The translations under genes and the position numbers were made by a program. This document shows positions 1,705 to 61,466 of a stretch of DNA of 64,000 bases, piece by piece. The notes below the pieces were generated by a model. That model was not told where the DNA came from and searched no databases. It saw nothing but the letters and a program-made list of their open reading frames with translations. Position 1 is the stretch's first letter. Each line of letters starts with the position of its first letter. Origin of the DNA: Tubulanus polymorphus (lineage: Eukaryota > Animalia > Nemertea); NCBI RefSeq assembly GCF_964204645.1, contig NC_134028.1, positions 14,081,653 through 14,145,652 of the forward strand, written 5' to 3'.

Positions 1705-2858
1705 TTAGTCATTGAAATGCCTGGCCGCAAATCTGGCTCTGAATGCCACGCTATCAAAATTTGGTGGTGCAAAGACGTCACCAAACTCCATTTCGTCGAC
1801 GACATCTGCGGGCTCTGGTTCATTCAACTGTATAGCTATGTTGTGTAGTATGGCACAGCACAAAACGATCTTACAGACACGTCCGGGTGTCATTCTTATT
1901 TCTCTGTGTAGAATGTGCGTTTAAAGATTCCAAAAGCCCTTTCTATGATGCTTCTGGTACTTTTATGAGAGCCGTTGTACCTTCTCTCTGCCCTTGAGTA
2001 CGCATGTAAAAACGGAGTAAGCAGAAACCTCCGGCACGCATATCCACTATCTCCCAAAATGATGCCATCATATTCTGGATGTGCTTCCAAATATCTAGGA
2101 AAGAAAAAATCAGCCATCCCTAAATCAAGTTGTGAGTTATAGATGGTGAATGGTTCTAAGCTTCAATAAGAAAATATTCCAATGATTGATAGCAATTCTC
2201 AGTCAAATGGACTTTTTCTTAGATTTCGACTCATGGGAAAATATTTTCCTTCTGGTTTTTCCAATAACGTAACACTTTAGAATATGCAAGAATTGATCTC
2301 TGTGAAAAGGTTATTTTTATAGTTCATGAATTACAGAAACAAGGGAGGGCGAACACATAGTTCAAGTGAGACGGAGACATTCATACCTGCTGATTGGAGA
2401 TGATCGGAATATATGACTATCATGAGTCGATCCAGGCCATTTTGCAATGATGTTGGTAAATCTTGCTGGAAAGAAGAAAACAGCGTGATCAATAGGCCTA
2501 CTAATAGACATTATTTACGTATAATGACTGAGGGTTAAGTTTGACACAAACATAAGTAGGGTATGCTTCATGATGGTAGACCTATCTTGGGATTCGAACC
2601 AGTATTGAAGCGGGGAAGATTATGGACTGTATAGTAGCGCCTTCTACTGTAATGCTAAGACTGAGATAAAACTGTCGCTTGCTGCATCTAGTCGCAAGTA
2701 CCCGGAAATATATAAATTATGGGAGAAACAAAACATTAACTGGGAATAATATTTTACCTTTGTGATCACATATTGCCTGAACATTGATGCTATGAAAGCT
2801 CTTTCTGTTGACGAAAGCTGGCTCATTTTCTGTTGGAGCCTGAATGCGAATGTGCGTA
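1705..2858 (-). pseudogene. Harbinger (HARBI1-like, DDE_Tnp_4) transposase, three exons, 5' part missing
   Basis: Exons 2858-2758 ([33 protein letters not shown]), 2465-2387 ([19 protein letters not shown]) and 2094-1705 ([22 protein letters not shown]) joined by phase-compatible GT-AG introns; frameshift near 1915. Confidence 0.92.
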
Positions 2859-3047
2859 AGTAATGGGGATAATAGGCTTTCAGATCAAAGGTCGAAGGGT
2901 CGAGCTCGTAAAAAAATGAAAATAACAATAATTTACAGTTGAATTAGTCGCGCACACTCCTAATTCAACTGTAAATTATTGTTATTTTCATTTTTTACTC
3001 ACTCGCCCATTCAACCTTTAACCTGAAAGCCTATTATCCCTATTACT
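2859..3047. repeat. Terminal palindrome (hairpin) of Polinton TIR
   Basis: AGTAATGGGGATAATAGGCTTTCAG..CAGTTGAATTAG / CTAATTCAACTG..CTGAAAGCCTATTATCCCTATTACT. Confidence 0.92.
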
Positions 3048-3278
3048 CTTAAAATATTCATGTAAATGAATTACATTTAAATTGACAGATTATTCAATAT
3101 AAAAGTGTAAGCTCTTATAGAATAGATATATAGATATATTTACAACATTATTTCAATATTCATATTTGTATGAGTTAGATTTTTAAACATTAAAAGTGTT
3201 AGTAAAGTGTGATTGAAATAATGCATAATATAAATCCTTGAACTTCTAAAATCAATTTAAAAAAAATATGTATAATAA

Positions 3279-3932
3279 ATGGAACCAGAACAACCACAAA
3301 CTATCAATATAACAAATAACGCTGGTGTTATAAACATATACTACAAGAAGTGTTCTAAATGTGAATTAGATAAATTAGCTATAACAGAATTTAATAAGCG
3401 TAAGATTAGCAAAGATGGTTTTCAATATTGCTGTAAAACTTGTACTAAACTATATACCAAACAATACAGAGAAGATAATAAGGAAGCTTATAATGATTAT
3501 ATGACAGAATATATGAGAGAAAGATATCAAACAGATCTTAATTTTAGATTAAAACAATGTTTAAGATCTAGATTAACACAATTATTCAACAAAGAAACAC
3601 ATTCAGAAACACTATCTAATTTATTGGGTTGTACAGATGAATTTTTCATATCATGGATAATATATCAATTCGATTATAGAATGAATATAGATAATTATGG
3701 TGAATACTTTCATATTGATCATGTGTTGCCGATTTCTAAATTTAACATGAATGATGAATACAATAACAAACTTATTTGGAGTTGGAAAAATTTAAGACCT
3801 TTAGAAAAGAAGGAAAACATAATTAAATCTAATAAACTAGATATACAGTTATATTTAGACCAACTGGATAAAGCAAGGACATTTGTTGAATTATGGAACT
3901 CAACACATAATGAAAAATACGTTGAAGCTTAA
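3279..3932 (+). CDS. HNH-type endonuclease with N-terminal CxxC zinc module
   Basis: KKCSKC..CCKTC, then HIDHVLP..NLRPL..EN..KSN; last codons replaced by an insertion at 3928. Confidence 0.75.
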   Translation: MEPEQPQTINITNNAGVINIYYKKCSKCELDKLAITEFNKRKISKDGFQYCCKTCTKLYTKQYREDNKEAYNDYMTEYMRERYQTDLNFRLKQCLRSRLTQLFNKETHSETLSNLLGCTDEFFISWIIYQFDYRMNIDNYGEYFHIDHVLPISKFNMNDEYNNKLIWSWKNLRPLEKKENIIKSNKLDIQLYLDQLDKARTFVELWNSTHNEKYVEA

Positions 3933-6035: not shown

Positions 6036-7100
6036 ATGAAAAAAGATATATATTTAAGAGAGTTATATTATAACCCAGAAAGTGAAGTATCATATTCTAA
6101 CGTTACAGAATTATGGGGTTAAAATTAAATCTGATAAGGAAAATGGCAATATAAAATATAGTGAATTGAAATCATGGTTACAAAATCAACCAACATATCA
6201 AATCCACAAGAAAATGGATAAAACTTATTTAACAAGAAAAGTTATGGTTTCATATATCGATCAACAATGGCAAGCTGATTTAATTGACATGAAGAACTTA
6301 TATTAAATGTTAGAGACATATTCAGTAGATACGCATGGTCAATTCCAATCAAAAATAAAACTGGTATAGAAGTTACTAATGCTTTTAAAAATATATTCAA
6401 AGAAGCTATTCCAGATAAGATACAATTTGATGAAGGTAAGGAATTTTATAATAAACATTTCAAAAAATTATTATCTGACAGCGATGTAGAATATTTTTCA
6501 ACACATTCAGATAAAAAAGCATCTATTATAGAAAGGTTTAATAAAACATTGAAATCTAGAATGTGGAAATATTTTACTGCTAATGGAACATATAAATATA
6601 TCGATGTATTAGATGATTTAGTGAAAGGTTATAATAATTATAAACATAGTTCTATAAATATGAAACCTATACAAGCTAGAAAAGAAGATCATTCGGAAAT
6701 AGTTTGGAATTATTTATATGGAGCATTTGTTACACATAATTTCGGCGAACCTAAATTTAAAATAGGACAACACGTTAGAATATCTAAATATAGAAAAACC
6801 TTTTATAAAGGTTATACCCCAAATTTTACAGAAGAAATATTCAAGATTAAAAAGATAATATTAACTAAACCTTTTGTTTATAAATTAGAAGATCTAAAAG
6901 ATGAAGAAATATTAGGTTATTTTTATGAACAAGAATTATCACTTGTACCAAACCCAGATGAAGTAGAATACAAAATAGAAAAAGTATTGAAAACAAAAAC
7001 TCTTAAAGGAAAAAAGTATTCTTTGGTGAAATATAAAGGATACGATGATAAATTTAATGAATGGATTTTATCTAGTAAAATTAAAAGAATAAATGAATAA
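6036..7100 (+). pseudogene. Retroviral-like (rve) integrase with C-terminal chromodomain, frameshifted
   Basis: WQADLIDM, IQFDEGKEF and IERFNKTLK DDE motifs; chromo-like YKIEKVLK..VKYKGYDDKFNEWI. Confidence 0.92.
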
Positions 7101-7704
7101 AGATTTATTTATATTTGAACCGCATAATATGTTAGTTACTGGAGTAACCAATTGTGGTAAAACACATTTCATATTAGATTTGTTAGAAACTATTTATAAG
7201 AATCATTTTGATAATATAATATTATTCTGTCCTACTTATGAAATGAATAAAACATATAATAGAGATATAGTTAAGATGAAAAAGTTTATTATATTAGATC
7301 CTAAAACAGTAAAAGAAAATTTAGATAATTGTATAAAAAAAGCAACTGATACTTATAAAGGATCAAATACATTATTCATTATAGGTGATTGCGCAAATTT
7401 ACATGATTCAAAAGTTAGAGAAAGTGAGTTATGTTATCTAGCTTTCTCTGGGAGACATTTTGGGATAACAACATGGGTTTTAAATCAAAAATATAATTCA
7501 ATTGTTAAAGACCTTAGGGAGAATATAAGATTTCTAGTTTTATTTTATAACAAAGATGAAAAATCTATGCAACAATCATTGGAAGAAAATCAAATTATAC
7601 CTACTGAATTACATGATGAATATATGAATAAATTGAAGAATAATAAAGGTTCAAAATTATTCCTGAGATTACAATTTCCCTATGAATATAAATTTATAAA
7701 ATAA
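7093..7704 (+). CDS. A32/FtsK-like DNA packaging ATPase (Walker B altered to IGD)
   Basis: Walker A GVTNCGKT, SGRHFG, NQKY; other copies have IIDD. Confidence 0.9.
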   Translation: MNKDLFIFEPHNMLVTGVTNCGKTHFILDLLETIYKNHFDNIILFCPTYEMNKTYNRDIVKMKKFIILDPKTVKENLDNCIKKATDTYKGSNTLFIIGDCANLHDSKVRESELCYLAFSGRHFGITTWVLNQKYNSIVKDLRENIRFLVLFYNKDEKSMQQSLEENQIIPTELHDEYMNKLKNNKGSKLFLRLQFPYEYKFIK

Positions 7705-14284: not shown

Positions 14285-14910
14285 GCGTATTAGATACGTA
14301 TTAGCTGCGTGTCTTTAATGTCTTTAGTAGTATTTTTGGTACTTTTAGTACATAAAGAATAAATATTTATTTTATTAGCACTGAATAAAATTATTTTCAA
14401 AACTACTAAACTACTAAAGACAATAGAGACATAACAAACACATAGATTTATCATTACCGAATCAAATATATATAATAAATCTGTGAGATAAATAAATCTA
14501 TGATATTCATTACTGAATCTAATATATATGATAAATCTATTGGTGTTTGCAGTGTCTTTATTGTGTTTAGTCATTTTAGTACATAAAGAATATATCTTTA
14601 TTTTATTAGTACTTAGAAAAATAAATATATAAATAATTTTTATATGTGATAAATCTATGATATTTATCATTATTGAAACAGTAATATATAATAAATCTGT
14701 GTGATGAATAAATATTATTTTTGAAACAGTAATATATAAAATCCATCAGATGAATAAATATAATTATTGAAACGGTAATATATATATTTATATCTTTATC
14801 TCTTCAGTAGTTTAGTAGTTCTATTTTATTTTTGAAACTACTTATAATATAAAGATTTATTCTTTGTGTACTATAAGTACTAAAACTACTAAAGGCAATA
14901 AAGAATAAAG
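14285..14910. repeat. Central intergenic region bounded by ~55 bp inverted repeats, with internal direct repeats
   Basis: CTTTAGTAG..TAGTACATAAAGAATAAAT (~14320-14365) versus ATTTATTCTTTGTGTACTA..CTACTAAAG (~14855-14895); repeated TTGAAACAGTAATATA and ATAAATCT. Confidence 0.7.
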
Positions 14911-22186: not shown

Positions 22187-22467
22187 TTATTCGAAATCTA
22201 TGTCATGGTGCCCTTTTTCATTCTTGCCCTTATATCTGAAATAAAAATCACCTGAACATAATTCTTCTAAATCTTCACTTGATAATCTATGAAATCTATC
22301 TGGTAAATATGTTCTGAATTTATATGTATTTCCTTTTAATCCGTCATATTCTAAGTGGATAACTAATTTACTACCATATCTATTAGTAACTGTATCAATA
22401 TTTGTAATTAGATATTTCTTATGAATTGTTAATTCCGTTAACCTTTTGAATTTATAATCTACTGATT
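22187..22467 (-). pseudogene. Small OB-fold-like ORF, 5' truncated
   Basis: Homolog of 46584-46937. Confidence 0.7.
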
Positions 22468-22604
22468 GTTGTTCTAGATTAAAGGTTGAGGGGGCGAGTG
22501 AGTAAAAAATGAAAAATAAATTCGAGTGTGCGAGAATTTATTTTTCATTTTTTATGAAATCGACCTCTCGACCTTTGATCTAGAACAACTAAACCCATAT
22601 TACT
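22468..22604. repeat. Terminal palindrome of Polinton TIR (inner arm partly deleted)
   Basis: GTTGTTCTAGATTAAAGGT..AAATTCGAGTGTGCGAGAATTT..ACCTTTGATCTAGAACAAC..ATTACT. Confidence 0.88.
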
Positions 22605-22619
22605 CCTATAGCTCTTATA

Positions 22620-25050
22620 CGAGAACAAACCGGACATCCACCTTCATCGTTTAATACTAAAAGTAATAAAGCCCGCATTGAATTTGAAAATAGGAATTTG
22701 TTTCTGTCGCGGTTACTCGTGCAAGTTTACAAAATATCAGATTGGAACATCTCTAACCCGTTAATTCAAGTCTATACAATAGGTGGAATACCACATATAC
22801 TTACTCAGTCTAAACACTTATACTGCTGGTCTATCACAGTCGATGTTCTGCAGTACATTGTCTTCAACTGGACTAGTGATCTCGTCTCGTCACCAGGTGA
22901 CTTTGGTGTATATAAACAGGAAGGTTTACGTATTGTGAGAACTGATATTTTACTCAGTTTTAACCATCTTAAACCTCTGAGTGTAAAATCAGACGGATTT
23001 CTCGTGATTCTGTGCCTTTTAACGACATCGGATTTTGTAAGATCGAATTTGAAAATAGAATTTGATGTGCAATCGATGACAATATCAGACGTCTACGTCA
23101 ACAAGCCAAGTATATGGGTTGTGAATCAAATTTGTATGAAATAATTGTTTTGATGATCTATGATTTTGATGAATATAATGCAGAGTGAAACAATCGAGAA
23201 ATGCAATGTTTCGAACTTCAGACAATATAACAGCGCAATTTTTAAAATCAAAATACTTATAATGATGGACAGAAGAAGGACGGTTATAGTGTAAACTACT
23301 AACTTATTATCAACATCGTTATGTATTTCAGGCAGCGTAAAATGTGAAATCATTGAACTCTCACAATATGTTCCAGCTCAATTTTTGAATCAAAATGATA
23401 TTGATGCACCGAAGAAGTTCAGTTTAAATGAAACGACTAACTTATTATCAACATGTTATGTATTTCAAGCAGCGAAAGTTGTGGAAATATTAAACTCTCT
23501 TGTTTTAAGTTTAAGGCATTTTACTTGTCGTTTTGCCGTCCGTAAGCGATTCTCTTATATTTCGGAATGATGTAGGCGCGATGTCATTACCAGCTATTTT
23601 TTCAGGTTGTAAGGAGTTTGAAATTCTAAACGTACAATGCTGTAATCAATTCTCTTACATTTTAGAATTCGAATGACGTGACAACAATTACAGCTGCTGC
23701 AATATTCCCGAGATTAAAGAATACATTGTATCGTGTAACTACATTACATTTAAAAACTGGAAAGTGAACATCTATGAATCACAGCAGTTGAAACTAACAG
23801 TGCTATCAGAAAACTGTGATCGAGCTGGTTTTTATATATTTGACGGTAGTAATTTCACAGCTAGACGCTATGGTCCGTATTGTCCTGGTTCATACTACGG
23901 TCGATCTGTCGTCAGCCTGATTACATCAGGTGAACCGGTTACTGTAGTAACATACGCTTATTACTATAACAATCAGTTAACAGTTGGTAGCTCATCTCTT
24001 ATATTTGCTCCTACTGATTGTGATGGTTATGTTCTACCGGAAGAAAAACGTCAGATCAATATGACGTCACACTGTCTCGTGATTACACCTGAAAATCGAC
24101 GCCTTCGTTTGAAAAATATTCACATATTATCAGAACACGAATATCAAACTGATAAATGTTTTCTCGGGATTTCATCGCGATGTGATCAGTCTCTGAGTTT
24201 GAGTATTAATCATTTTCTTAATAACAGTTCCGTATTAAACCACTGTAGATTTCACAGGTAATGAGTTTGGATTCTGGCAGGAACCACTAATAGTTAAACT
24301 ACGCCGTAAATGTCTAGGAGTGAAAAAATCCGATAGTTCTGGATTTCTTGGATCCCGTCTCCCAGTTACCACTAAAGATAAATGTGGACTCGTGCAGTCG
24401 CCGAACTACCCTGGTTGGGCAGGACGTAGATCAAAATCTATTTCCTAAAAATTTGAAAACCAACCAATTATATTTCAATATTACAGATTTATTGTCAAAT
24501 TCATTGGATCAGTTTCATGCAAACTACATGCATGATACAAACAACATGCATGAGAATGATCCGATCATTTTGATACAATCAATCAATTACGAACCCTTTC
24601 TTAATGGAAAACATTCCAAAACCATTGAAACCAAACATGAAACTAAAATATGTGATAATAACGCGGTTCGTGGACTTATATTTCATAGTTTAACAGATAA
24701 TACTCTGCATTTTGTAGTAATGAATGGTATACCCATCTTTCAAATACAATACACTTTACACGAGTTGTTACCGATTAAAGATTTCGATGATTTCTACTGT
24801 AAGGATTTCTAGATTCTGGAATTTCCTGTATCAAATTCATCAGAGATGAACGTCTGAATTGGGAGAACGCTGAAATATACTGTAGACAGAAGTACGCTGC
24901 ACATCTACTGAGTATCATTTCAGAACAGGAAATGATTTCATCAAAAGAATATTCGCTACAGAACTTCTCCGAATGGCGTACTCATTGAAAGCGCTCATAA
25001 TGATGATTGGATCGAAATGGAAGGTAATACTAATGTATTCAAAAATTAAT
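22620..25050 (+). pseudogene. Decayed, apparently intronless cysteine-containing extracellular-type gene (CUB-like segments)
   Basis: Consecutive + strand ORFs 22698, 23764 and 24348; NCDRAGFYIFDG..YGPYCPG and CWSITV resemble CUB strands; higher GC than the Polinton DNA. Confidence 0.4.
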
Positions 25051-25152
25051 TAGAAAAGAAAGAATTTTAAAGAAATAATATATTTAATTTTCTTCACGAA
25101 ACAGAATGATGGTTATTACACGTGGACTGGCGGTAAACCATTGAGCTACACA

Positions 25153-25305
25153 AGTAATAGGGAATAAGTTGTTTCATACCAAAGGTTGAAAGGGGCGAGT
25201 GAGTAAAAAATAAAAAATAAATTCTCGCAAACTCGAATTTATTTTTTATTTTTTACTCACTCGCCCCTTCAACCTTTGATATGAAACAACTTATTCCCTA
25301 TTACT
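25153..25305. repeat. Terminal palindrome, near-perfect, 153 bp
   Basis: AGTAATAGGGAATAAGTTGTTTCATA..AAATT-CTCGCAAACTCG-AATTT..TATGAAACAACTTATTCCCTATTACT. Confidence 0.95.
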
Positions 25306-25384
25306 CTTAAAATATTCATATATATGAATAAAATATGAATGAATAACTTCTAAAATCAATTTCAATAAAAAATTTAGTATTAAA

Positions 25385-28300
25385 ATGGAAGCAAATAAGT
25401 ACTACTGCCCAACATGTAATATCAATATAGACAAATCCCAAAAAGCTAGACACAATAAAACTAAAACACATTTAGAGAATAAATTGAAATTAGAATATGA
25501 AGATGATATATTAGAAACTAAATTAGATGAATTAAAGAATGAAAAAGAAACATACAAATGTGATACATGTAATCAATCATTCAGTGATAAAAGATATTAT
25601 AAAGAACATTTAAAATCTAAAAGTCATATTAGAAATATCAATAATGATATTTTAGGTGAAGAATATTTTGATAATGATAATGATAAGAAACAGAAGACAA
25701 TTAAAAGCATAAAAAATAAATTAAACAATAAAAGACCATACATGGAAGATGTAAGAAATTATATTAATTCATCAGATAATAAAAAAGATATAGAGATAAC
25801 CGAAGCATTTAAAAGTGATATTGGTCCAGCAGCTATCGAGTTTAAATTTCATAAAGGAGAAACATTAGAAGAAAATAAAAAACATTTAGAAAATATGAAA
25901 AATATTATAAAAATAATTACTGATGTTGAATATCCTAAAATAAGTATTTCATCAAAAGTTAAATTCATAAAATCTAAAGATAAACCAATATATAATATAA
26001 ATTCTCATTCACAACAGATTATATCTAAACAACATATAGATGATAAATTAGATAAATGTTATAATGAAGTAAAAACTAAAATAGAAGAGAAATATTTTGA
26101 AGGATCTGTTTTAATATTTGATGAAATAATATTTATGACTTTAAATGTTTATAACACAAAATAAGTTAACTAAATCAAAACCAATTGAAGAAAATAATGT
26201 ATCATATTATAAAGAACCAGATATTGAAGCATCGAGTTATATTAAACTACCATTTAAAACTAATGCTGTAATAAATGTACAAAATGAAGATGATATATGT
26301 TTTCTATGGGCTATAATAAGTTGTTTACATTCAACAGAAGATATTACACATAGTTTTAGATTAACTCATTATAAACCATTTGAAAATAATTATAAGATAG
26401 ATAATTATCCTGTTAGAATTAAAAATATCCCAAAAATAGAAAGAGATAATAATATAAAGATAAACGTATTTGATTTAATCAAATTACCAAGTACAAAAGG
26501 TAACAACATAAAACATTATACATTAGAACCTTTATATCTATCAAAAGATTATGACTCAAATGATGTTATAGATATATTATATTATGAAAATCATTATATG
26601 TGGATTAAAAGAATTGATTTATTCTTTAAATCAGAAAATGATTTTGATAATAAAATATATCTATGTAGAAAATGTTTACATAAATTCAGAACTGAAAGTG
26701 CATTATTAAATCATAAACAATTATGTGAAAATCATGATTATTGTAAATTAGTTTTACCAAATGAAAAGGATAAAATATTAGAATTCAAAAAATATGATTA
26801 CAAAAATAAAGTACCATTTGTAATATATGGAGATTTTGAATCATTAAATAAAGAACTAACTGATCAAGATAGAAAAGAAATGTAATATAAAAGAAAGAAA
26901 TTAAATTCTAATGAAAATGATTATTCTGAAGAACCACCAAAAACAAATACTATTAAAAAGATTCATCAATCAGCTGCTGCTTTCGGGTTATATATTAAAT
27001 CTGATTATCCAGAACTAATTGAAAGTGAATATTACGATTATAGAAATGAAAATGTTATCAATCATTTTTGTGACTTATTAATTGAATATGAAATAAGATT
27101 TAGTAAATTATTGAATACAAATATAGAAATTATAATGACAGAAGAAGATAAAGAAGAATTTGCGTTTGCAGATAAATGTTATTATTGTGAAAAGATATTT
27201 AATTATAAAGATAATAAAGTAAGAGACCATGATCATTTGAACGGAAAGTTTAGAGGCGCTGCACATGAGAATTGTAACTTACAAGCTAAGAAAATTAACT
27301 TTGTACCAGTTATATTTCATAATCTATCAGGATATGATGCACATTTATTCATCAAACAGTTATGTCATAAAATAGAAGAAATTAATAATGAAATAGAAAG
27401 ATTAAATTCAAATAGATCAAAAGATAAAATACCAACTTATAAATTTAGAATGTTAGTTAAAACTTCTGAGAATTATATATCATTCCAATTTGGTTGCCTA
27501 AGATTTATAGATTCATATAGATTTTTAAATAGTTCATTAGATAACTTATCAAAATCATTAGTTGATGATGAATTAAAGATATTAAAACAACACTACCCAA
27601 ATAATGATGATTTTCAATTAATGAGATATAAAGGCGCAATTCTATATTCTTTCTATAAAAATCGTAATGATTTTAACATAACTGAATTATTAAAAGAACA
27701 ATTTTATGATGAATTAAAAAATGAATATGTTAAAGATGAAGTATATAATAGATAATTGAATATTTGGAATCATTTCAATATAGAAAATCATGGGCAATTA
27801 GTAGATATATATTTAAAATCAGATGTATTATTATTAACCGATATATTCGAAAGGTTTAGAGATGTAAACCTAAAATATTTTAATATTGATCCTTGTCATT
27901 GTTATTCATCACCAGGATTAACATGGGATTGTGGATTAAAATTTACAGATATAAAAATGGATTTGTTAACAAATATAGATCAATTACTATTATTTGAAAA
28001 ATCTATAAGAGGAGGAGTTGCAGGTGTATTAGGGGATAGATATTTCAATGTAAATGATAACCCTGGATATAAGTTATTATATATAGATGCAAATAATTTG
28101 TATGGTTGGGCAATGATGGAACCACAACCTTATGGAGTATTTGAAATAAGTGAAGTTTTACAGAATGAAAATAATGATAAATTTGATTGGAAGAAAAGAA
28201 TTCTAGATATTGCAGATGATTCAGATACTGGTTACTTCTTTGTTGTAGATTTAGAATATCCTGAAGATAAAAAATTTAAATCTAGAAATCTAGCATACTG

Positions 28301-29420
28301 TCCCGAACATAAAACTGTAACTCATGAAGAATTATCAAATTAACAAAAAAGAATTAAACCCGAAAATCATATTCATACAGAAAAGTTAATGGTAACTCAA
28401 GAAGATAAATATAATTATGTAGTACATTACAGAATGTTAAAGTTTTATCTAAAACAAGGAATGATTCTAAATAAAGTACATAGATATATTTCATTCAGTC
28501 AATCTAAGTGGTTAGAAAAATATATAGATTTTAACACCAAACAGAGAACTAAAGCTAAAACTGATTTCGAAAAAGATTTCTTCAACTTAATGAATAATGC
28601 ATTCTATGGAAAAACTTGTGAAAATATTAGAAATAGAAATGATATTGAGTTAGTTAGTAATGGTAAAAGGATAAGGCATTTACAATCATATCCTAAGTTC
28701 ATTGGTAACAGAATATTTGATGAAAATTTAGCTGCAGTTAAGATGAGAAGAACATCAATGAAATTTAATAAACCAATCTATGTTGGCGCTTCAGTTTTAG
28801 AATTATCAAAATTACTAATGTATGAATTCTATTATAATGTATTACAACCACTTTTTGGAGAAAAGCATATAGAAATATTATATCTTGATACTGACAGTTA
28901 CATATTAAAGATAAAAACTGATAACATAACAGATGATTTAAAAACATTAAAACATCATTTTGATTTCAGTAATTATCCTAAAGATCATGAATTGTTTAGC
29001 AATGATAATAAAAAAGTTCCAGGGAAGTTTAAGGATGAATTAGGCGGTGAAGAAATGATAGAGTTCATAGGTATTAGATCTAAAATGTATTCATATAAAA
29101 CTAAAGAACATGAAGCTAAAAAGTTAAAAGGAATAACCAAAAGTGTAGTAGAAAAGAATATTCATTTCAAAGATTACATCAATTGTATATTCAATGAAGG
29201 AGTTAGAAAACATAAGATGAGATGTTTAAGATCTGAAGATCATGAAATGTTTATTGAAGAAATTGAAAAGATAAGTCTAAACCCATTTGATGATAAAAGA
29301 TATATTTTAGATGATGGAATTCATACAGTTGCTTATGGTTGCAATTTAGATGAATACTTAAAATTTAAAAGAGAAGAAACAAAAGAGAATGAGATAATGA
29401 AAAGAATTCTATTGTGTTAA
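25385..29420 (+). pseudogene. Full-length pPolB with a few stops/frameshifts (ZnF, vOTU-like, EndoVII-like, exonuclease, polymerase)
   Basis: ORFs 25385, 26145, 27111, 27756 and 28389 are collinear; YGDFES, FHNLSGYD, FIDSYRF, YLKSDV, DANNLYG, NNAFYGK, YLDTDS. Confidence 0.95.
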
Positions 29421-29449: not shown

Positions 29450-29803
29450 ATGGAGAGTAAACAAACACACAGTGAGAAAAACAAATTATTTCTAGATAGA
29501 ATAAAAGATACTTCAAATGTCAAATCAGTAGATTATAAATTTAAGAAGTTAACAGAATAAACAATCCATAAGAAATATCTAATTGCAAACATTGTTACAG
29601 TTACTAACAAATATGGAGATAAATTAGTTATACACTTAGAATATGAAGGATTAAAAGGAAATACATATAAATTCAGAACATATTTACCAGATAGATTTCA
29701 TTGATTATCAAGTGAAGATTTAGAAGAATTATGTTCTGGTGATTTCTATTTCGTATACAAAGGTAAGAATGAAAAAGGGCATCATGAAATAGATTTCGAA
29801 TAA
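29450..29803 (+). pseudogene. Small OB-fold-like ORF with one stop
   Basis: Homolog of 46584; TAA at ~29558. Confidence 0.7.
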
Positions 29804-34986: not shown

Positions 34987-36235
34987 ATGAGCGGGAGTTA
35001 TATCAATCCTTCTAAGAATCATAGAATATCTAATGCTATTAAAGCAGAAAGATCACATCATATAATTACTCATAACCCTTCTAACATTAATCCTGATGAA
35101 ACTTTATATGTTAGAATTCCTCGATTAACACAAAATACTTTTTATGTTCCAAATAGTATTTATTTATCAGCCGATATAAAAGTAATCGGTAATAATAATA
35201 ATTATGTTGTCGATAATGTTGGAAGAAATTTGATTAAAAAATTAACAATAAAGATTGGTCCAGAAACAGTTTTCTCATTAGATGATTATAATTTATTTAT
35301 GCATTATAAAGATTTATGGTTAACTAAAGAAAATGGAAATAATATGATATTTCAAGGCATCCAATCAGAAAACCAAAATAAATTAAGATCTGAAGCTAAT
35401 AATGCAGTAGTAACTAATGCTACAGATAATTTGATAAAAAAGATTTATGGAAGCAAATATAAAATTCCATTAGACTTTGAATTGATAAATAACAATGCAC
35501 CTTCATATAAATACGCAATTCAAGAAGATGTTATATTCGAAATAACATTTGCTCCTGTAAATGAAATTGTAATATCTAGCGTTAATAAAGATATGAGTTA
35601 TAAATCATCGAATATATGTTTAGAATATGACACAGTAACTGATGAAAATATTTCAAGTATAATTCAAACTCAATACAATCAAGGATTTTCATTATTATAT
35701 GATTATATTGATAAATTTAAAACTGTAACTATTAATGCAAATGATGAAATAATTAATGAGAATATTAACTTCCCAAGAAGATCTATTAAAGTTATATTAA
35801 TATTTTTTACCATTGCAACATATACTAATGGTGCAATAAATGTTGATAATTATTATAATCCTGAAATAACAAAAGTAGAAATAACTATCGAAGGAATAGC
35901 AAATAAAATATTTTGTCAAGGAATGAGAATGATTGATCAATGGCCAGAAATTAGAAAACATTTTATGAATGAAAAAGTAAAATCATTTGAAAATTGTAAT
36001 ATTAATCAAATTGATTATTATACCGGTAATAAATATGCATTATGGTTAGATTTTAGAACAACAGAGGATAATTCATTACATGGTTCTGGAAAAAAAACTA
36101 CAAAACACTAAAGATGGAATACAATTATTCATGACAAAGAATAAAGGAATCAAAAATTTTAAAATGCACATTTATATTATATCTGACGCGCAATTAAATA
36201 TTGTAAATTCTCAATTAAATAGTGTTATGTATTAA
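34987..36235 (+). pseudogene. Major capsid protein (putative double jelly-roll), frameshift near the 3' end
   Basis: ~415 codons, beta-rich; THNPSNINPDETLYVRIP, YKIPLDF, NINFPRRSIK, LWLDFRT; position in the structural module. Confidence 0.8.
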
Positions 36236-36267: not shown

Positions 36268-36582
36268 ATGGAAGGAGGTAAAGTATATAAACATATTCCA
36301 TACATCGATACACATGAAAATAATGATGGCTTATATTATGTAATACCTTGTAATATAGCTTTGATATTTGATCCTTTTTTCAAAATTTATAAAACTAAAC
36401 TAATAGAAATCGATAATAATAAAAGTGAAGTTGTTGATAATTTAAGTAATGTAATTGATAATAATGTAATACCTTCTACATCTAATAATGTTTTACCTTC
36501 TACATCAAATAATGTTTTACCTCCTACATCAAATAATGTTTTACCTTCTACATCAAATAATGAAATATTTGATCCTATTTTC
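36268..36582 (+). pseudogene. Zinc-finger gene 5' part with NNV(I/L)PSTS 24-bp repeats
   Basis: Matches the N-terminus of 59275-60201; breaks into integrase sequence. Confidence 0.75.
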
Positions 36583-36752
36583 AAGAATTATCACTTGTAC
36601 CAAATCCAGAGGAAATAGAATACAAAATAGAAAAAGTATTGAAAACAAAAACTCTTAAAGGAAAAAAGTATTCTTTGGTGAAATATAAAGGATACGATGA
36701 TAAATTTAATGAATGGATTTTATCTAGTAAAATTAAAAGAATAAATGAATAA
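36583..36752 (+). pseudogene. Integrase chromodomain fragment
   Basis: QELSLVPNPEEIEYKIEKVLKTK..FNEWILSSK. Confidence 0.85.
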
Positions 36753-37427
36753 AGATTTATTCATATTTGAACCGCATAATATGTTAATAACTGGAGTAAC
36801 CAATTGTGGTAAAACACATTTCATATTAGATTTGTTAGAAACTGTTTATAAGAATCATTTTGATAATATAATATTATTTTGTCCTACTTATGAAATGAAT
36901 AAAGATATAATAGAGATATAGTTAAGATGAAAAAGTTTATTATACTAGATCCTAAAACAGTAAAAGAAAATTTAGATAATTGTATAAAAATAGCAATTGA
37001 TACTTATAAAGGATCAAATACATTATTCATTATAGATGATTGCACTAATTTACATGATTCAAAAGTGAGAGAAAGCGAGTTATGTTATCTAGCTTTCTCT
37101 GGGAGACATTTTGGGATAACAACATGGGTTTTAAATCAAAAATATGATTCAATTGTTAAAGACTTTAGGGAGAATATAAGATTTCTAGTTTTATTTTATA
37201 ACAAAGATAGAAAATCTATGCAACAATCATTGGAAGAAAATCAAATTATACCTACTGAATTACATGATGAATATATGAATAAATTAAAGAATAATAAAGG
37301 TTCAAAATTATTACTGAGACTACGATTTCCCTATGAATATAAATTTATAAAAAAACTATTTATAATTTGGAATATTATAGAAACTAATTTATATTTCTAT
37401 GTACTAGACGTACGAGTAAGAAAGTAA
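36745..37427 (+). pseudogene. Packaging ATPase, frameshifted
   Basis: GVTNCGKT at ~36793; frameshift near 36905. Confidence 0.88.
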
Positions 37428-37495
37428 GATTCTTACCTTTTTACTTTCTTGGCAAGAATCTTGGATTCTTACGTACGTCTAGTCCATAGAAATAT
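37391..37495. repeat. Central palindrome
   Basis: ATATTTCTATGTACTAGACGTACG .. CGTACGTCTAGTCCATAGAAATAT. Confidence 0.9.
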
Positions 37496-37547
37496 GAATT
37501 ATTAAATGAAATATATAATGATGAATAAATTATATATTAAAACTATG

Positions 37548-37600
37548 TTTATAATTTATGTTTATAATTTATGTTTATAATTTATGTTTATAATTTATAT
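37548..37600. repeat. 13-bp tandem repeat (TTTATAATTTATG), about 4 copies
   Basis: Read directly from the sequence. Confidence 0.85.
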
Positions 37601-37699
37601 TTCTTGGTAAGGATTCTTGGGTTCTTACTTTCTTACTCATACGTCTAGTGCATAGATATATAAATATTTTTATAGATATATAAATAGTTTTATAATAAT

Positions 37700-38852
37700 T
37701 ATTCTAATTTTGTTTCTAATACATTTATAAAATCATCTTTGTTTATATCAAATTCATCAGAAGTCTTTGGCATATTTATTAATTCTATTTCATCCTTCAT
37801 TCTACGTTCATCATCACTTAATCCAGCTTTTATTCTTAATTATTCAAAGTAATCATTAGAATTATCACCATCAAAATCAAATTCAAAATCATTTATTTAA
37901 TTGAATAAATCTAGGTATCCATTATACGCTAATTTATATATTTGGTCAGGATTATCTTCTGCATAAGCTAATAATTTATCAAATAACAACTTAAAGAATA
38001 TATGATATTGTTTAGTTTCAGGATTAAGATATTTGATATATTTCTTTAATATTTTTCTTTGGTTCATCTAACAATGGTAACATACCCACTTTTTTATAAA
38101 CATTAATTAGATTTAATTAATTTTGATTTATAATGAGTAATTTTATCAACAGGATCAATTTCTTTATTACAGTAATCACATATTAATTCTTTTTCATTTT
38201 CTATGTGCCCCTTAGATTTTTAATGTTTAGAAAAATTACTTTTAGAAATATCTAAATTACAAATGTTACAATGTTTTTTAGAATCATCCATTATTTCATT
38301 ATCTGTTATATCATTATCATTAGTTTCAATTGGGTTAACATTATTTATTACATTATCTGTTATATTATCTATGGTATCATTAGTTTCAATTGGGTTAACA
38401 TTATCTTTTATATTACTAACTGATATATTATTATCATTATTATTCTTTTCTTTTTCTATATGTTTCTTTGATTTCTTATGTGATACCCAATTTTTATATG
38501 ATATATATTTCTTACATACATCACAATATTTTGGATTATAATAATCTTTTTTTGATTCAATATCATATGTAGAGGGTATATTATAAGATGTAGATGCTGT
38601 TACATCTTCTATTTTAGATTCAATATTATTACTATCTTCTATTTTAGTTTCAATATCATCTTCTATTTTATATTCAATATCATTCTTATCTTCTATTTTA
38701 GTTTCAATATTATCTTTTATTTTACTTATTCTATATTTGAATTGATTATAGTAATCTCCAAAATACTTAATGTATTCATCATAAGGTAATATATAATATA
38801 TATCTGTTATCATTTCACTTGGAGTTTGTATTTCATATATTCCACCTTCCAT
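37700..38852 (-). pseudogene. Variable zinc-finger protein and downstream ~88 aa region, decayed
   Basis: YCDVCKKY..SHKKSKKH and HCNICNLDISKSNFSKH; 3' part homologous to 59022-59500. Confidence 0.75.
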
Positions 38853-46583: not shown

Positions 46584-46937
46584 TCATTCGAAATCTATTT
46601 CATGGTGCCCTTTTTCATTCTTACCCTTATATATGAAATAGAAATCACCAGAACATAATTCTTCTAGATCTTCACTTGATAATCTATGAAATCTATCCGG
46701 TAAATATGTTCTGAATTTATGTGTATTTCCTTTGAATCCTTCATATTCTAAGTGTATAACTAATTTATCTCCATATTTGTTAGTAACTCTATCAATATTT
46801 GTAATTAGATATTTCTTATGGATTATTAATTCTTTTAACTTCTTAAATTTATAATCTACTGATTTGACATTTGAAGTATCTTTTATTCTATCTAGAAATG
46901 ATTTGTTGTTCTCACTGTGTGTTTGTTTACTCTCCAT
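46584..46937 (-). CDS. 117 aa protein, possibly OB-fold ssDNA-binding
   Basis: FKKLKEL..KYLI..VTNKYGDKLVIHL..YLPDRF..FIYKG; lies next to pPolB; fold is inferred. Confidence 0.6.
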   Translation of the reverse strand: MESKQTHSENNKSFLDRIKDTSNVKSVDYKFKKLKELIIHKKYLITNIDRVTNKYGDKLVIHLEYEGFKGNTHKFRTYLPDRFHRLSSEDLEELCSGDFYFIYKGKNEKGHHEIDFE

Positions 46938-46966: not shown

Positions 46967-49840
46967 TTAACACGTTAGAATTCTTTTCATTATCTCGTTC
47001 TCTTTTGATTCTTCTCTTTTAAATTTTAACTATTCATCTAAATTACACCCATAAGCAACTGTATGAATTCCATCATCTAAAATATATCTTTTATCATCAA
47101 ATGGGTTTAGACTTATCTTTTCAATTTCTTCAATAAACATTTCATGATCTTCAGATCTTAAAAATCTCATCTTATGTTTTCTAACTTCTTCATTGAATAT
47201 ACAATTGATGTAATCTTTGAAATGAATATTCTACTACACTTTTAGTTATTCCTTTTAACTTTTTAGCTTCATGTTCTTTAGTTTTATATGAATACATCTT
47301 AGATCTAATACCAATGAATTCAATCATTTCTTCACCGCCTAATTCATCTTTGAATTTACCAGGAACTAAACAATTCATGATTTTTAGGATAATTACTGAA
47401 ATCAAAATGATGTTTTAATGTTTTTAAATCATCAGTTATGTTATCAGTTTTTATCTTTAAAATGTAAGAATCGGTATCAAAATATAATATTTTTATATGT
47501 TTTTCTCCAAAAAGTGGTTGTAATACATTATAATAGAATTCATACATTAGTAATTTTGATAATTCTAAAACTGATGCTCCAACATAGATTGGTTTATTAA
47601 ATTTCATTGATGTTCTTCTCATTTTAACTGCGGCTAAATTTTCATCAAATATTCTGTTACCTAAAAACTTAGGATATGATTGTAAATGTCTAATTCTTTT
47701 ACCATTACTAACTAACTCAATATCATTTCTATTTCTAATATTTTCACAAGTCTTACCATAGAATGCATTATTCATTAACTTGAAGAAATCTTTTTCGAAA
47801 TCAGTTTTAGCTTCAGTTCTCTGTTTGGTGTTAAAATCTATATATTTTTCTAACCACTTAGATTGACTGAATGAAATATATCTATGTACTTTTTTTAGGA
47901 CCATTCCTTGTTTTAGATAAAACTTCAACATTCTATAATGTACTACATAATTATATTTATCTTCTTGAGTTACCATTAACTTTTCTGTATGAATATGATT
48001 TTCGGGTTTAATTCTTTTTTGATAATTTGATAATTCTTCATGAGTTACAGTTTTATGTTCGGGACAGTAAGCTAGATTTCTAGATTTAAATTTTTTATCT
48101 TCAGGATATTCTAAATCTACAACAAAGAAGTAACCAGTATCTGAATCATCTGCAATATCTAGAATTCTTTTCTTCCAATCAAATTTATCATTATTTTCAT
48201 TCTGTAAAACTTCAGTTAATTCATATACTCCATAAGGTTGTGGTTCCTGCAGCTGATTGATGAATCTTTTTAATAGTGTTTGTTTTTGGTGGTTCATCTG
48301 AAAAATCATTTTCATTAGAATTTAATTTCTTTCTTTTATAATATATTTCTTTTCTTTCTTGATCAGTTAATTCTTTATTTAATGATTCAAAATCTCCATA
48401 TATTACAAATGGTACTTTATTTTTGTAATCATATTTTTTGAATTCTAATATTTTATCCTTTTCATTTGGTAAAACTAATTTACAATAATCATGATTTTCA
48501 CATAATTGTTTATGATTTAATAATGCACTTTCATTACTGAATCTATGTAAACATTTTCTACATAGGTATATTTTATTATCAAAATCATTTTCTGATTTAA
48601 AAAATAAATCAATTCTTTTAATCCACATATAATGATTCTCATAATAAAATATATCTATAACATCGTTTGAATCATAATCTTTTGGTAGGTATAAAGGTTC
48701 TAATGTATAATGTTTTATGTTGTTACCTTTTGTATTTGGTAATTTGATTAAATCAAATACATTTATCTTTATATTATTATCTCTTTCTATTTTTGGGATG
48801 TTTTTAATTCTAACGAGATACTTATCTATCTTATAATTATTTTGAAGTGGTTTATAATGAGTTAATCTACAAATATTATGAGTTGCAGGATGTAAACAAC
48901 TTATTATAGCCCATAGAAAACATTTATCATCAGAATTTTGTACATTTATTACAGCATTAGTTTTAAATGGTAGTTTAATATAACTTGATGCTTCAATATC
49001 TGGTTCTTTATAATATGATATATTATTTTCATCTATTGGTTTTGATTTAGTTAACTTATTATATTTTGTGTTATAAACATGTAAAGTCATAAATATTATT
49101 TCATCAAATATTAAACCAGATCCTTCAAAATATTTCTCTTCTATTTTAGTTTTTACTTCGTTATAACATTTATCTAATTTATCATCTATATGTTGTTTTG
49201 AAATAATATGTTGTGAATGAGAATTTATATTATATATTGGTTTATCTTCAGATTTTATGAATTTAACTTTAGAAGATATACTTATTTTAGGATATTCAAC
49301 ATCAGTAATTATTTTTATAATATTTTTCATATTTTCTAAATGTTTTTTATTTTCTTCTAATGTTTTTCCTTTATGAAATTTAAACTCGATAACTGCTGGG
49401 CCAATATCACTTTTAAATCCTTCGGTTATCTCTATATCTTTTTTATTATCTAATGAATTAATATAATTTCTTACATCTTCCATGTATGGTCTTTTATTGT
49501 TTAATTTATTTTTTATGCTTTTAATTGTCTTCTGTTTCTTATCATTATCTTTATCAAAATAATCTTCACCTAAAATATCATTATTCTTATTTCTAATATG
49601 ACTTTTAGATTTTGAATGTTCATTATAATATCTTTTATCACTGAATGATTGATTACATGTATCACATTTGTATGTTTCTTTTTCATTCTTTAATTCATCT
49701 AATTTAGTTTCTAATATATCATCTTTATATTCTAGTTTCAATTTATCCTCTAAATGTGTTTTAGTTTTATTGTGTCTTGCTTTTTGGGATTTATCTATAT
49801 TGATTTTACATGTTGGGCAGTAGTACTTATTTGCTTCCAT
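46967..49840 (-). pseudogene. pPolB with ~1.1 kb internal deletion
   Basis: HQSAA joined directly to EPQPYG at ~48248; EndoVII-like region, most of the exonuclease and motif A lost. Confidence 0.93.
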
Positions 49841-49919: not shown

Positions 49920-49972
49920 AGTAATTGGGAATATCTTGTTTCAGGTTAAAGGTTGAATGGTCGAGTTCATTA
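49920..49972. repeat. Inner arm of terminal palindrome
   Basis: AGTAATTGGGAATATCTTGTTTCAGGTTAAAGGTTGAATGGTCGAG, about 80 bp upstream of the pPolB ATG as in copy C. Confidence 0.8.
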
Positions 49973-50071
49973 ATAACAAATATCAAAAGTAATTTAAAAC
50001 TATAATATATTTTCATAACCGTGTGTATTTCAGTTGAATATTATTATTATTTGAATATATTTGATTATATG

Positions 50072-50161
50072 AATGTGTGTATTGTAAATAAATCAATTGG
50101 TCGCGGAGCGGAGCGGCAGCGAAGTGGAGCGACCAATTGATTTATTTACAATACACACATT
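50072..50161. repeat. Perfect 33-bp inverted repeat with GC-rich loop
   Basis: AATGTGTGTATTGTAAATAAATCAATTGGTCGC / GCGACCAATTGATTTATTTACAATACACACATT. Confidence 0.92.
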
Positions 50162-50189
50162 ACACACAATTAATTTATTTACCGATATG

Positions 50190-50403
50190 TGTAACCATAA
50201 CTTTTCTTGTTAAATAATTTGTATCCATTTTCTAATGGATTTGATATGTTGGTTGATTTTGTAACCATAATTTTAACTCACTATATTTTATATTTTCTTT
50301 ATCAGATTTAATTTTATCCCATAATTCTGTAACACTAGAATATGATACTTCACTCTCTGGGTTATAATATAAATCTCTTAAATATTGTTTCTTTTTTCAT
50401 CTT
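50190..50403 (-). pseudogene. Integrase 5' fragment
   Basis: Reverse complement matches 6036-6250. Confidence 0.82.
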
Positions 50404-55436: not shown

Positions 55437-55529
55437 AACACCAGCAGTGTTATTTGTAATGTTGATAATTTGTGGTTGTTCTGGTTCCATTTATTATACA
55501 TATTTTTTACTAAATTGGTTAATATTTTA

Positions 55530-56870
55530 GAATCCTCTTCCATTTCTTCGACCAACGTCATCCTTTTTCATTCCTCACTGCTTTTGATAAGTTGTTTCGA
55601 TTCCTTGATATCTAAATAATACCACTGGGCAAAACCGCTCTTATAGGAGCGTTTTTGCTTAATGCGCATGCGTTAATCATAATTATATATTCATTCTGTA
55701 AATTCTGTAAAATAGAAACAACACATGCGTTACATGCGTCACATGCATCACATGCGGCCATTGATGTCCGGTTTTGCTTAATGCACATGTGTTAATCATA
55801 ATAGAAACAACCGACATGAAATATCTAAATAATACCACTGGGCAAACCGCTCTTATAGGAGCGTTTTTGCTTAATGCGCATGCGTTAATCATAATTATAT
55901 ATTCATTCTGTAAATTCTGTAAAATAGAAACAACTGAACATAAAAAATTCAAACGCATGTGCACTAGGCAAAACCGCTCTTATAGGAGCGTTTTTGATCA
56001 ATGCGCATGCGCTAATCCTAATTATATATTCATTCTGTAAAATAGAAACAACTGAACATAGAAAATTCAAACGCATGTGCACTAGGCTAAACCACTCTTA
56101 TAGGAGCGTTTTTGATCAATGCGCATGCGTTAATCATAATTGTATATTCATTCTGAATAGAAACGACCGAACATAAAAATTCACCAAACAGATTTACACA
56201 ATACATTATAGAAGTTGGTCAGTCGTTTCTTTCAATACATCATTTGATTTCTATAAATACAATTTATAATAACAAACATTTTTTCAATTGCTGGTAAATA
56301 TTTAACTACATCAACAAATGTTAAACTTAATCATTGGAGTCTTAATGTTTTGGAATTCTTATATAGTTTCTTCATCGATCTTTTGGCGATTCTATTGGTT
56401 TGATATCCATTGCTGTTGATTCCTCAGTCAGAAAGAGTATCTTGAGTTTCTCTCTCACTTCTTGATGCGTATGGCGTTTTATTAATCTAAAAGATATTAG
56501 CGGCAACTCTAGCCATCTAAAAGATATACTAAATACACTTAAATATATCTAAAGGTTTCATATTTAATAGCCCTAATAACTACAAAAAACAGTACTTACA
56601 TTTAGATTTAGAATTGTAAACTATAAACTCCTAATTTCGTTTCGAGAGATAGAATATCCTGAGCACAATGTTACAGCGTCTGTTCATTTCTTGCCACGTC
56701 ATCTGGTTCCGGTTCTAGAGTGTTCTCTGCACGTTTGTTATAATGAGTCATATGTCTCGGCGTCATAGTAACAGCTGTAACAGCTGTGAATTTATAGATT
56801 TATTCCATAGCTCTTTACATAGAATGTATATAGGCTCAAATAGAATCATGTTCTAGTATAAACAGCTATG
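55530..56870 (-). mobile_element. Non-Polinton insertion related to 3928-4751 (boundaries approximate)
   Basis: Reverse complement of ~56575-56660 matches ~4190-4262 (AGGATATTCT..TTAGGAGTTTA..AAATGTAAGTACTGTTTTT). Confidence 0.5.
55612..56180. repeat. Minisatellite, four ~120 bp units each with a small hairpin
   Basis: AAACCGCTCTTATAGGAGCGTTTTTG..AATGCGCATGCGTTAATC..TAGAAACAAC repeated. Confidence 0.9.
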
Positions 56871-57289: not shown

Positions 57290-57414
57290 AGTAATAGGGA
57301 ATAAGTTGTTTCATATCAAAGGTTGAAGGGGCGAGTAAGTAAAAAATAAAGAATATAAAATTCGAGTTTGCGAGAATTTATTTTTTATTTTTTATGAGCT
57401 CGACCCTTCCAACC
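57290..57414. repeat. Terminal palindrome, outer arm truncated
   Basis: AGTAATAGGGAATAAG..AATTCGAGTTTGCGAGAATTT..ATGAGCTCGACCCTTCCAACC. Confidence 0.88.
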
Positions 57415-58478: not shown

Positions 58479-58494
58479 TTTGGAATATTATAGA

Positions 58495-58677
58495 AACTAA
58501 TTTATATTTCTATATACTAGACGTACGTAAGAATCCAAGATTCTTGCTAAGAAAGTAAGAATTCTTGGATTCTTACTCGTACGTCTAGTATATTGATATA
58601 TAAATTATTAAATGAAATATATAATAATGAATAAATTATATATTAAAACTATGTTTATAATTTATGTTTACACAGGG

Positions 58678-58744
<67 letters not shown>

Positions 58745-58895
58745 AAATTTAGAATAATTTAGAATAATTATTCTAATTAATTCTAATTAATAATTATTCT
58801 GAAACTGTTTATATATCTATGTACTAGACGTGTGAGTAAGAATTCTTACCAAGATTCTTACGTACGTCTAGTATATAGATATATAAATTAGTTTT
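58495..58895. repeat. Two central palindromes separated by a (TA)n tract
   Basis: TACTAGACGT..ACGTCTAGTA at ~58515-58590 and ~58822-58873; (TA)~30 at 58682-58740. Confidence 0.9.
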
Positions 58896-59021
58896 ATAAT
58901 AATTATTCTAAATAAAATATATAAAAATGAATAAATTATATGTTTTCTCTTAATGAAAATAAAAATAGATAATATTATAACTATTTCTATACTTAGATTA
59001 ATAATTTATGTTTTATAATAA

Positions 59022-61135: not shown

Positions 61136-61142
61136 AAGTAAA

Positions 61143-61428
61143 TATACTACAAATGTCAAATCTGTAGATTATAAATTCAAAAAGTTAACAGAATTAACAT
61201 TGGATAAGAAATATTTAATTACAAATTTTGAAACAATTACTAATAGATATGGTAATAAATTAGTTATTCACTTAGAATATGAAGGATTAAAAGGAAACAA
61301 ATATAAATTCAAACATATTCACCAGATAGATTTCATAGATTATCTAGTGAAGATATTGAAGAAGTGTGTTCTGGTGATTTCTATTTCATATACAAAGAAT
61401 GAAAAAGAATGTCATATAGATTTCGAAC
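61143..61428 (+). pseudogene. OB-like ORF fragment
   Basis: NVKSVDYKFKKLTEL..TNRYGNKLVIHLEY. Confidence 0.75.
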
Positions 61429-61466
61429 AATATAAAATCAATTTTAATAAAAAATTTGATATTCAA

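Follow-up and report, generated by a model that had tools for sequence, protein, structure and literature searches.

Terminal fold-back palindromes in Polintons of the nemertean Tubulanus polymorphus and their possible role in protein-primed replication

The Polintons in a 64-kb stretch of the Tubulanus polymorphus genome (64,000 nucleotides of contig NC_134028.1, here called the window) end in long palindromes that begin at AGTAAT and fold back on themselves when modelled as single-stranded DNA. This terminal hairpin is a real and conserved feature, in which a palindrome, a position at the true end of the element, a fixed motif spacing, arms that match each other in diverged families, and one dominant orientation are combined. 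Regarding its role, the reading preferred here, to which a probability of roughly one half is given, is that protein priming has been kept and that the fold-back serves as a local duplex origin, as a preliminary description of this DNA had suggested, and also as a template for end repair.

The window is a scrambled cluster of Polinton copies in both orientations, which are 80–97% alike, and searches with Pfam and PHROGs identify in it pPolB, an integrase with a chromodomain, an A32 ATPase, a capsid protein, and an HNH/endonuclease VII (EndoVII)-like open reading frame (ORF). According to the marker map, one end of the element runs from the HNH gene through an uncharacterised ORF and the integrase to the ATPase, and the other from pPolB through a small gene and DUF5901 to the capsid module. 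Both gene arms meet at AT-rich palindromic DNA, a convergence visible in three copies, and a weak match to PF16903 (double jelly-roll capsid) is likewise present in three Polinton copies. The genes are placed as follows.

3279..3932, forward strand: HNH/endonuclease VII-like ORF adjoining hairpin h1 (phrog_1035, E 2e-17)
6288..7100, forward strand: retroviral-type integrase with chromodomain (PF00665, E 2e-4, and PF00385, both below the curated cut-off)
7111..7704, forward strand: A32-type packaging ATPase (PF04665, E 7e-12, above the cut-off)
25385..29420, forward strand: pPolB of copy C, with a frameshift near 26160 and three in-frame stops
29453..29800, forward strand: small gene adjoining pPolB, broken here, possibly a phi29-type single-stranded-DNA-binding protein (a lead only)
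34987..36111, forward strand: major capsid protein of copy C (weak PF16903 match, below the cut-off)

Among the 58 ORFs with a length of 120 aa or more, 53 were compared with Pfam, and none of these matched an adenovirus-like maturation protease; the Polinton copies are broken. Single window proteins had no relatives in viral_contigs, and P0005 had none among phage records.

Five hairpins, two of them complete, lie among these copies.

2859..3047, forward strand: h1, complete 189-nt terminal palindrome of the HNH/integrase-side end, with mismatches clustered over the tandem motif
22468..22604, reverse strand: h2, outer end intact, with a shortened inner arm fused to the small gene after pPolB
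25153..25305, forward strand: h3, complete 153-nt terminal palindrome of the pPolB-side end, outer arm almost identical to the inner
49920..49987, reverse strand: h5, inner arm only, a further hairpin subfamily
57290..57414, reverse strand: h4, inner arm and loop intact, outer arm truncated and joined to internal element DNA

The preliminary description had reported homologous palindromes at four of these sites and a half at 49920, and all five were located where it had put them. Self-complementarity reaches 92% over 154 columns in h3 and 85% over 190 in h1. Folding as single-stranded DNA, also supposed at that time, gave −72.3 kcal/mol for h3 (z −23.5) and −67.8 kcal/mol for h1 (z −21.0), none of 200 shuffled sequences being as stable in either case, and in a scan of 1,277 segments of 150 nt over the 64 kb (mean −8.8, standard deviation 4.9) the h3 segment was the most stable and h2 the second. 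Three of the five copies (h2, h4, and h5) are broken inside the hairpin, which indicates its fragility; about 16 nt of the inner arm are missing from h2 and about 31 nt of the outer arm from h4. The fusion point of h2 lies at about codon 32 of the small gene, and the undeleted form is seen behind 22467 in 473 reads; because this gene normally follows pPolB, h2 represents an internal deletion with loss of pPolB, so that of its earlier description as a terminus the outer end stands and the inner side does not. The upper-stem type of h5 is found on both arms in reads (369 behind 2916 and 529 before 3001, compared by eye). An interpretation of h5 as one hairpin of about 390 nt with its tip at 50072–50161 was rejected, since 49920–50320 does not fold in this way. 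The segment 50072–50161 is a 90-nt palindrome with a G-rich loop (−35.9 kcal/mol), which lies upstream of the integrase position, has no second copy in the window, and may be a separate intergenic feature.

In h1, h2, and h3 the outer arm begins exactly at AGTAAT, as had been noticed before. Beside h1 lies a Harbinger element with a Myb/SANT ORF at 423–980 and an intron-bearing transposase.

1705..2858, reverse strand: Harbinger transposase exons (DDE_Tnp_4 profile positions 4–47, 41–67, 68–131, and 132–158)

A transposase exon is cut at 2858|2859, and the DDE_Tnp_4 match starts at profile position 4 with the first residue past the junction. Raw reads of run X4 (another sample, from a study distinct from runs X1–X3; about 12 in 100 of the run were read) were aligned with 2810–3110, where their depth rises from 86 to 2,410 across 2859 and 1,471 of them carry loose letters before 2859 with an agreement of 0.34, that is, many unrelated flanks. 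The cut exon had already been taken as the mark of the true end, and these data agree: the h1 outer boundary (stem base, AGTAAT) is the true Polinton end. At the other two hairpins the host repeat breaks off exactly at the hairpin boundary, continuing otherwise behind 25152 beside h3 in 813 reads and being cut at 22604|22605 beside h2 in 565 reads. The 6-mers outside h1, h2, and h3 differ from each other, as expected for separate insertions, and a pairing of h1 and h2 as two ends of one element was rejected on the basis of this difference.

Relatives were obtained in a metagenome search, where at least five loci (L001–L005) are among the matches listed and three reach far enough upstream. L004 possesses its own hairpin of 257 nt (z −13.9), which starts with AGTAAT, ends with ATTACT, and borders on host-like DNA at its outer side, the contig of L002 starts inside a hairpin which ends in ATTACT, and the pPolB genes of these two loci are about 80% identical in DNA. 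The more distant L005 has an intact pPolB ORF of 1,336 aa and keeps the end motif without a fold-back (z −0.07; one end on one contig), so that not every member of the clade needs the hairpin. The preliminary description had named intact TSD-flanked elements without the palindrome as evidence against its proposal; L005 partly corresponds to this, with its intact pPolB ORF and end motif. In L001, L002, and L004 the HNH gene follows pPolB internally, and thus it marks an end only in the Polinton family of the window. No terminal hairpin of this kind with at least 40 columns was found in 24 distant loci from a broad pPolB alignment, with a TIR-like pair only in L008, L028, and L029, and since recognisable ends are rare in these loci the scan is uninformative on the range of the hairpin.

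The claim that both the pPolB and the HNH ends carry the hairpin was supported by gene order and read junctions, on which it depends because no window copy has both hairpins complete. The hairpin of h3 is followed by a short common segment.

25306..25331, forward strand: remainder of the TIR, about 26 bp common to both ends before divergence

At 25331, 559 reads switch from h3 to a continuation of the h1 type, while in h1 528 X4 reads change to the pPolB-side form at 3082 and 297 keep the h1 form past 3106. Both end types thus consist of the hairpin and about 26 bp and then diverge, which gives a TIR of about 180–225 bp, 153–189 of it fold-back, and the 5′-AG beginning of a Polinton TIR is present at both. 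The hairpin unit also resembles a mini-element with AGT…ACT ends, and the X4 depth of the outer arm exceeds that of the inner arm by about a third at its peak (about 3,300 versus about 2,500), as could be expected from an independent MITE with Polinton-like ends that merely sits at Polinton ends. However, the inner side of all five window hairpins adjoins Polinton DNA, the X4 depth at the inner boundary falls only from 2,463 to 2,122, compared with 1,471 loose reads at the outer end, no loose-end row behind 3047 is found among the six X4 rows listed (best 12 of 225 rows overall; smallest X4 row 297 reads), and L004 and L002 show the same hairpin placement. The worry that the palindrome might occur mainly away from Polinton DNA was not borne out, and the MITE explanation is largely refuted and highly improbable; solo hairpins are at most a minority, and a minority of under about 300 reads is compatible with the listed rows. 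Some Polinton ends may lack the inner arm: the outer-arm depth is the higher one, and 686 X4 reads depart from the outer arm at 2915, for which the six listed loose-end rows contain no mirror. Together with L005, these reads suggest that for part of the clade the hairpin may be dispensable.

Each hairpin end is an imperfect palindrome of 150–260 nt, the arms being two inverted copies of a motif of about 50 nt. This motif has AGTAA at its tip and, after a variable spacer, a pair of GGKYGA hexamers, the first of which begins 31 nt from the tip in all eight window arm matches, in the outer arm of L004, and in L005, and 32 nt from it in L002. With at most one mismatch the motif occurs six times in the window against 0.00 expected by chance, a looser tandem-hexamer pattern finds eight arms there, and the degenerate motif had no exact match in viral_contigs and genome_contigs.

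Over the first 31 nt the two arms have 28 bases in common in h1, 30 in h3, and 26 in L004, and the outer arms of different families share 21 of these 31 bases. When h1, h3, and L004 are compared in pairs, the 31 columns contain 8, 7, and 8 double-sided changes, a count which comes from three hairpins only and is uncorrected for kinship. The upper stems vary in length and sequence yet remain paired, further upper-stem types being visible in reads, and the upper stem of h1 exceeds that of h3 by sequence present on both arms, a difference that requires one arm to have served as template for the other. Mismatches in the hexamer region cluster in h1 and L004, the motif still differs between the arms in h1, h2, and h4, and the outer arm of h3 is almost wholly converted to the inner type. 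The matched arms and the conversion in h3 indicate that one arm has been copied from the other at least occasionally, and such copying would imply a fold-back intermediate. This might have happened without any benefit, if one snap-back accident duplicated the end and intramolecular repair has since kept the arms alike; fold-back repair alone would yield matched arms and symmetric indels, L005 lacks the hairpin, and breakage in three of the five window copies points the same way. A tolerated by-product is nevertheless quite unlikely, considering that the hairpin is present in at least three families here as well as in L004 and L002, that the arm-specific motif differences persist, and that neutrality should lead to the loss of long palindromes, which are unstable.

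The pPolB of copy C contains C2H2 fingers, a domain like a terminal protein (TP), a vOTU protease domain, an EndoVII insert, and a DTDS motif, and PF03175 (family B polymerase) is above the cut-off on one pPolB piece. Intact relatives of 1,319–1,365 aa are 60–68% identical, the named ones belonging to insects and a coral, and these names, like the introns of the Harbinger transposase, make an animal host probable. For structure prediction the following segment was used.

48224..49840, reverse strand: pPolB N-terminus of copy D, open over 539 codons

These 539 codons were modelled with 44 sequences (mean pLDDT 81, pTM 0.41). In the model residues 136–256 form a strand-strand-helix-strand-strand-helix-loop-strand arrangement, with the Gly-flanked Ser241 in the loop between the second helix and the last strand, and the same topology is described for PRD1-like TPs in the accessible part of the pPolB domain paper (10.1101/2024.03.18.585575). 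Ser241 is kept in 42 of the 44 sequences (the other two have gaps), the vOTU Cys307 in all 44, and His403 in 43. Most top Foldseek matches in the PDB are Y-family polymerases, over about 110–130 columns and with E values of 0.01–0.05, which is above 0.001; the same paper, in the part available, links the TP fold to the LF/PAD domain of these polymerases (10.1101/2024.03.18.585575). Against BFVD the matches are adintovirus, MELD virus, densovirus-labelled, and mavirus proteins, the best being a Drosophila-associated adintovirus 2 protein (E 1e-16). According to the model pPolB keeps predicted terminal-protein and vOTU protease domains, and by this retention the hairpin would not have replaced the terminal protein.

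In the preferred reading, that of protein priming with a fold-back origin, the 3′ end of a displaced single strand would fold back and pair with the inner copy of the motif, and the folded end would offer a local double-stranded origin to the predicted terminal-protein/pPolB complex, with the inner arm as template for repair of the tip. The fold, which presumably forms in vivo, would take the place of a 15–20-kb panhandle as the second-strand origin, proofreading and fold-back copying would keep the arms alike, and binding at the inner copy may be weakened by the mismatches over the motif. Self-priming from the folded 3′-OH would then be an occasional side reaction, leading to inverted dimers that need a resolving nuclease. 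A precedent for the combination of a terminal protein with fold-back repair is described for Streptomyces telomeres in the accessible text of PMC5449611. Against this reading stand the intact pPolB of L005 without a fold-back, the 686 reads that leave at 2915, the consideration that a paired 3′-OH with template beyond it should be extended unless blocked, and the observation in protists, as far as the available part of the 2026 preprint goes, that palindromes occur mostly with elements other than those with pPolB (10.64898/2026.07.28.741278).

In h1, h3, and L004 folding sets the 3′-OH exactly at the inner boundary, paired and with template beyond, as the preliminary description had envisaged, so that extension is possible. 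From this it had derived a hybrid mode of replication. In such a mode the terminal protein would start only the first strand, the folded 3′ end would routinely prime the second, and an element nuclease, for which the HNH/EndoVII ORF or the EndoVII domain of pPolB are candidates, would resolve the closed or dimeric product with one orientation kept. The exact placement of the 3′-OH and the two encoded EndoVII-like nuclease domains (the ORF and the insert in pPolB) speak in its favour, and the mismatches over the motif recall the asymmetric origins of parvoviruses. The same idea is proposed for protist virophages and PLVs in the accessible part of 10.64898/2026.07.28.741278. If it were true, these elements would connect, as a living intermediate, linear replicons that use protein priming with parvoviruses and poxvirus-like giant viruses, whose genomes are hairpin-ended.

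Symmetric resolution as in AAV gives equal flip and flop ends. In the window, however, the loop orientation is identical in all four copies that keep the loop, and positions 2893 and 3013, which tell the outer from the inner arm in the first hexamer, are absent from the best 40 of 87 variant rows with a lowest share of about 15%, a bound on flop which concerns integrated copies only, assumes rows ranked by share, and would be escaped by asymmetric resolution. At position 3006 (second hexamer, inner arm) the outer-type base is present in 987 of 2,323 reads, as in h5, and may reflect subfamily variation or past conversion. Seven of the eight listed raw-read joint rows hold the loop, all in one orientation; they are not independent evidence against flip-flop, because placement follows the arm type. 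Strand-switch joints inside the hairpin occur in small numbers (8–14 reads each). The 1,471 X4 outer flanks have no common sequence, unlike the inverted inner DNA outside the hairpin that would be the signature of a self-primed dimer. No HUH (Rep/NS1) nickase was found in 53 ORFs against Pfam or in 10 ORFs against PHROGs, the EndoVII domain (PF02945) is common in related pPolBs and consequently not specific to hairpin ends, and the data concern integrated copies only. As for the inverted concatemers expected earlier, the large inverted pair of the window, copies C and D, was rejected as a snap-back dimer, its centre at 36582–36584 being 11 kb from any hairpin and its halves 88–94% alike. The lack of a 50:50 flip-flop and of hairpin-centred dimers disfavours routine rolling-hairpin replication, and parvovirus-style self-priming of Polinton ends is possible but not supported. 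With the predicted TP and vOTU domains kept, one arm orientation dominant, and the bulk of the flanks not inverted element DNA, the hybrid mode as the routine one was not supported and is considered rather unlikely.

Alternatively, the hairpin could have no part in priming and act as a signal in excision, integration, packaging, or the protection of the end, a mark by which the integrase, a packaging protein, or a structure-specific nuclease recognises the end on single-stranded or cruciform DNA. The foot of the stem and the terminus lie at exactly the same nucleotide, and the structure is retained while the sequence of the upper stem and loop changes. A parallel is known from vaccinia virus, where the maturation of virions, but not the synthesis of DNA, depends on the mismatches in the hairpin according to the available part of PMC8956199. 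The duplicated unit, however, looks like an origin with fixed spacing. In addition, rve integrases act on duplex ends, where the fold would not form, and a pure signal function appears fairly improbable in comparison with a fold-back origin under protein priming.

With Polintons/Mavericks of the adintovirus type the elements share pPolB with TP and vOTU, the rve integrase, the A32 ATPase, the capsid gene, and the AG ends, whereas, in contrast to the panhandle model, the TIR here is almost wholly a fold-back palindrome. To our knowledge the start of Polinton replication and the exit from the chromosome are still only modelled. Both are given as proposed in the accessible parts of 10.64898/2026.07.28.741278 and 10.1101/2024.03.18.585575. 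Neither hairpin nor palindrome is used as a word in the adintovirus paper (PMC8502044), hairpin is likewise absent from the pPolB domain paper (10.1101/2024.03.18.585575), and no account of long fold-back TIRs in an animal pPolB Polinton was found in the open literature, a scope outside which lie the 2006–2007 Polinton/Maverick papers, Repbase, and supplements.

The closest likeness is reported in the available part of the 2026 preprint, where palindromes are present in the TIRs of Halocafeteria virophages and of PLV subtype 4 (10.64898/2026.07.28.741278). These are also integrating preplasmiviricots with palindromes inside the TIRs beside the TSD, and hairpin priming is proposed for them; their palindromes are 52 nt long (subtype 5) and are found mostly with replication genes other than pPolB (10.64898/2026.07.28.741278). 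Here, in contrast, the palindromes are 137–257 nt long, pPolB keeps a predicted TP, the arms duplicate the end motif, and the orientation was tested in reads. In Streptomyces telomeres TP priming is likewise combined with terminal palindromes which fold as single-stranded DNA, and truncated tips undergo fold-back repair, but there are several short palindromes, an internal origin, and Tap/Tpg proteins, and no homology is claimed (PMC5449611, in part). Casposons are also self-synthesising, some with pPolB and some with internal palindromes in the TIRs, but they are prokaryotic, use a Cas1 integrase, and have TIRs with a median of 56 nt (PMC4046053, in part). Telomeres of poxviruses are AT-rich, incompletely paired hairpins with conserved mismatches (PMC8956199, in part), but there the closed end is the loop, whereas the host-joined end here is the stem base, which argues against a closed telomere of the poxvirus type. 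The elements of the window are double-stranded DNA with an integrase and their own polymerase, in which no HUH/Rep was found in the ORFs scanned and no 50:50 flip-flop was seen, and in this they differ from parvoviruses and AAV. Otherwise the terminal hairpins of the latter are similar in length, with a 3′-OH paired at the boundary with unique DNA and a mismatch bubble.

Terminal palindromes are extended by these findings from protist virophages and PLVs to an element with predicted protein-priming domains, a combination which speaks against a simple replacement of the terminal protein by a hairpin. The ends offer a short defined substrate, with a conserved motif of about 50 nt, a natural inverted copy whose mismatches are fixed, and a relative that naturally lacks this copy, and oligonucleotides allow the comparison of protein priming with self-priming.

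Several minor observations concern the same region. The 121-aa small gene is always beside pPolB (29453–29800, 46587–46934, 22190–22462, and 61146–61313; L004:571–936); its nearest Atlas cluster with a family is that of a phi29-type single-stranded-DNA-binding protein (PF17427 on 44% of members, score 0.82), and as a lead only such a protein would fit strand displacement. In the copy at 61140–63151 this gene stands before pPolB, as in L002–L004 and unlike copies C and D, and two Polinton gene orders therefore coexist in one genome. The AT-rich palindromes or repeats at the convergence of the gene arms lie at 37345–37710, 58486–58991, and 14312–14904 and are possibly transcription terminators. 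Positions 22605–25152, between h2 and h3, are mostly multi-copy repeat with ORFs that match no Pfam family. The summed contig depth of pPolB (25342–26600) relative to the host repeat (23732–24214), contig depth not being copy number, is 17.9 in X1, 1.0 in X4, 1.2 in X2, and 0.6 in X3, and the excess in X1 could be due either to library bias or to free Polinton DNA in the sample. A fragment of a more distant pPolB, with 70–73% DNA identity to the other window copies, occupies positions 1–235, and imperfect tandem repeats of about 120–210 bp at 55575–56183 lie beside a fragment that matches the start of the HNH gene (55437–55520).
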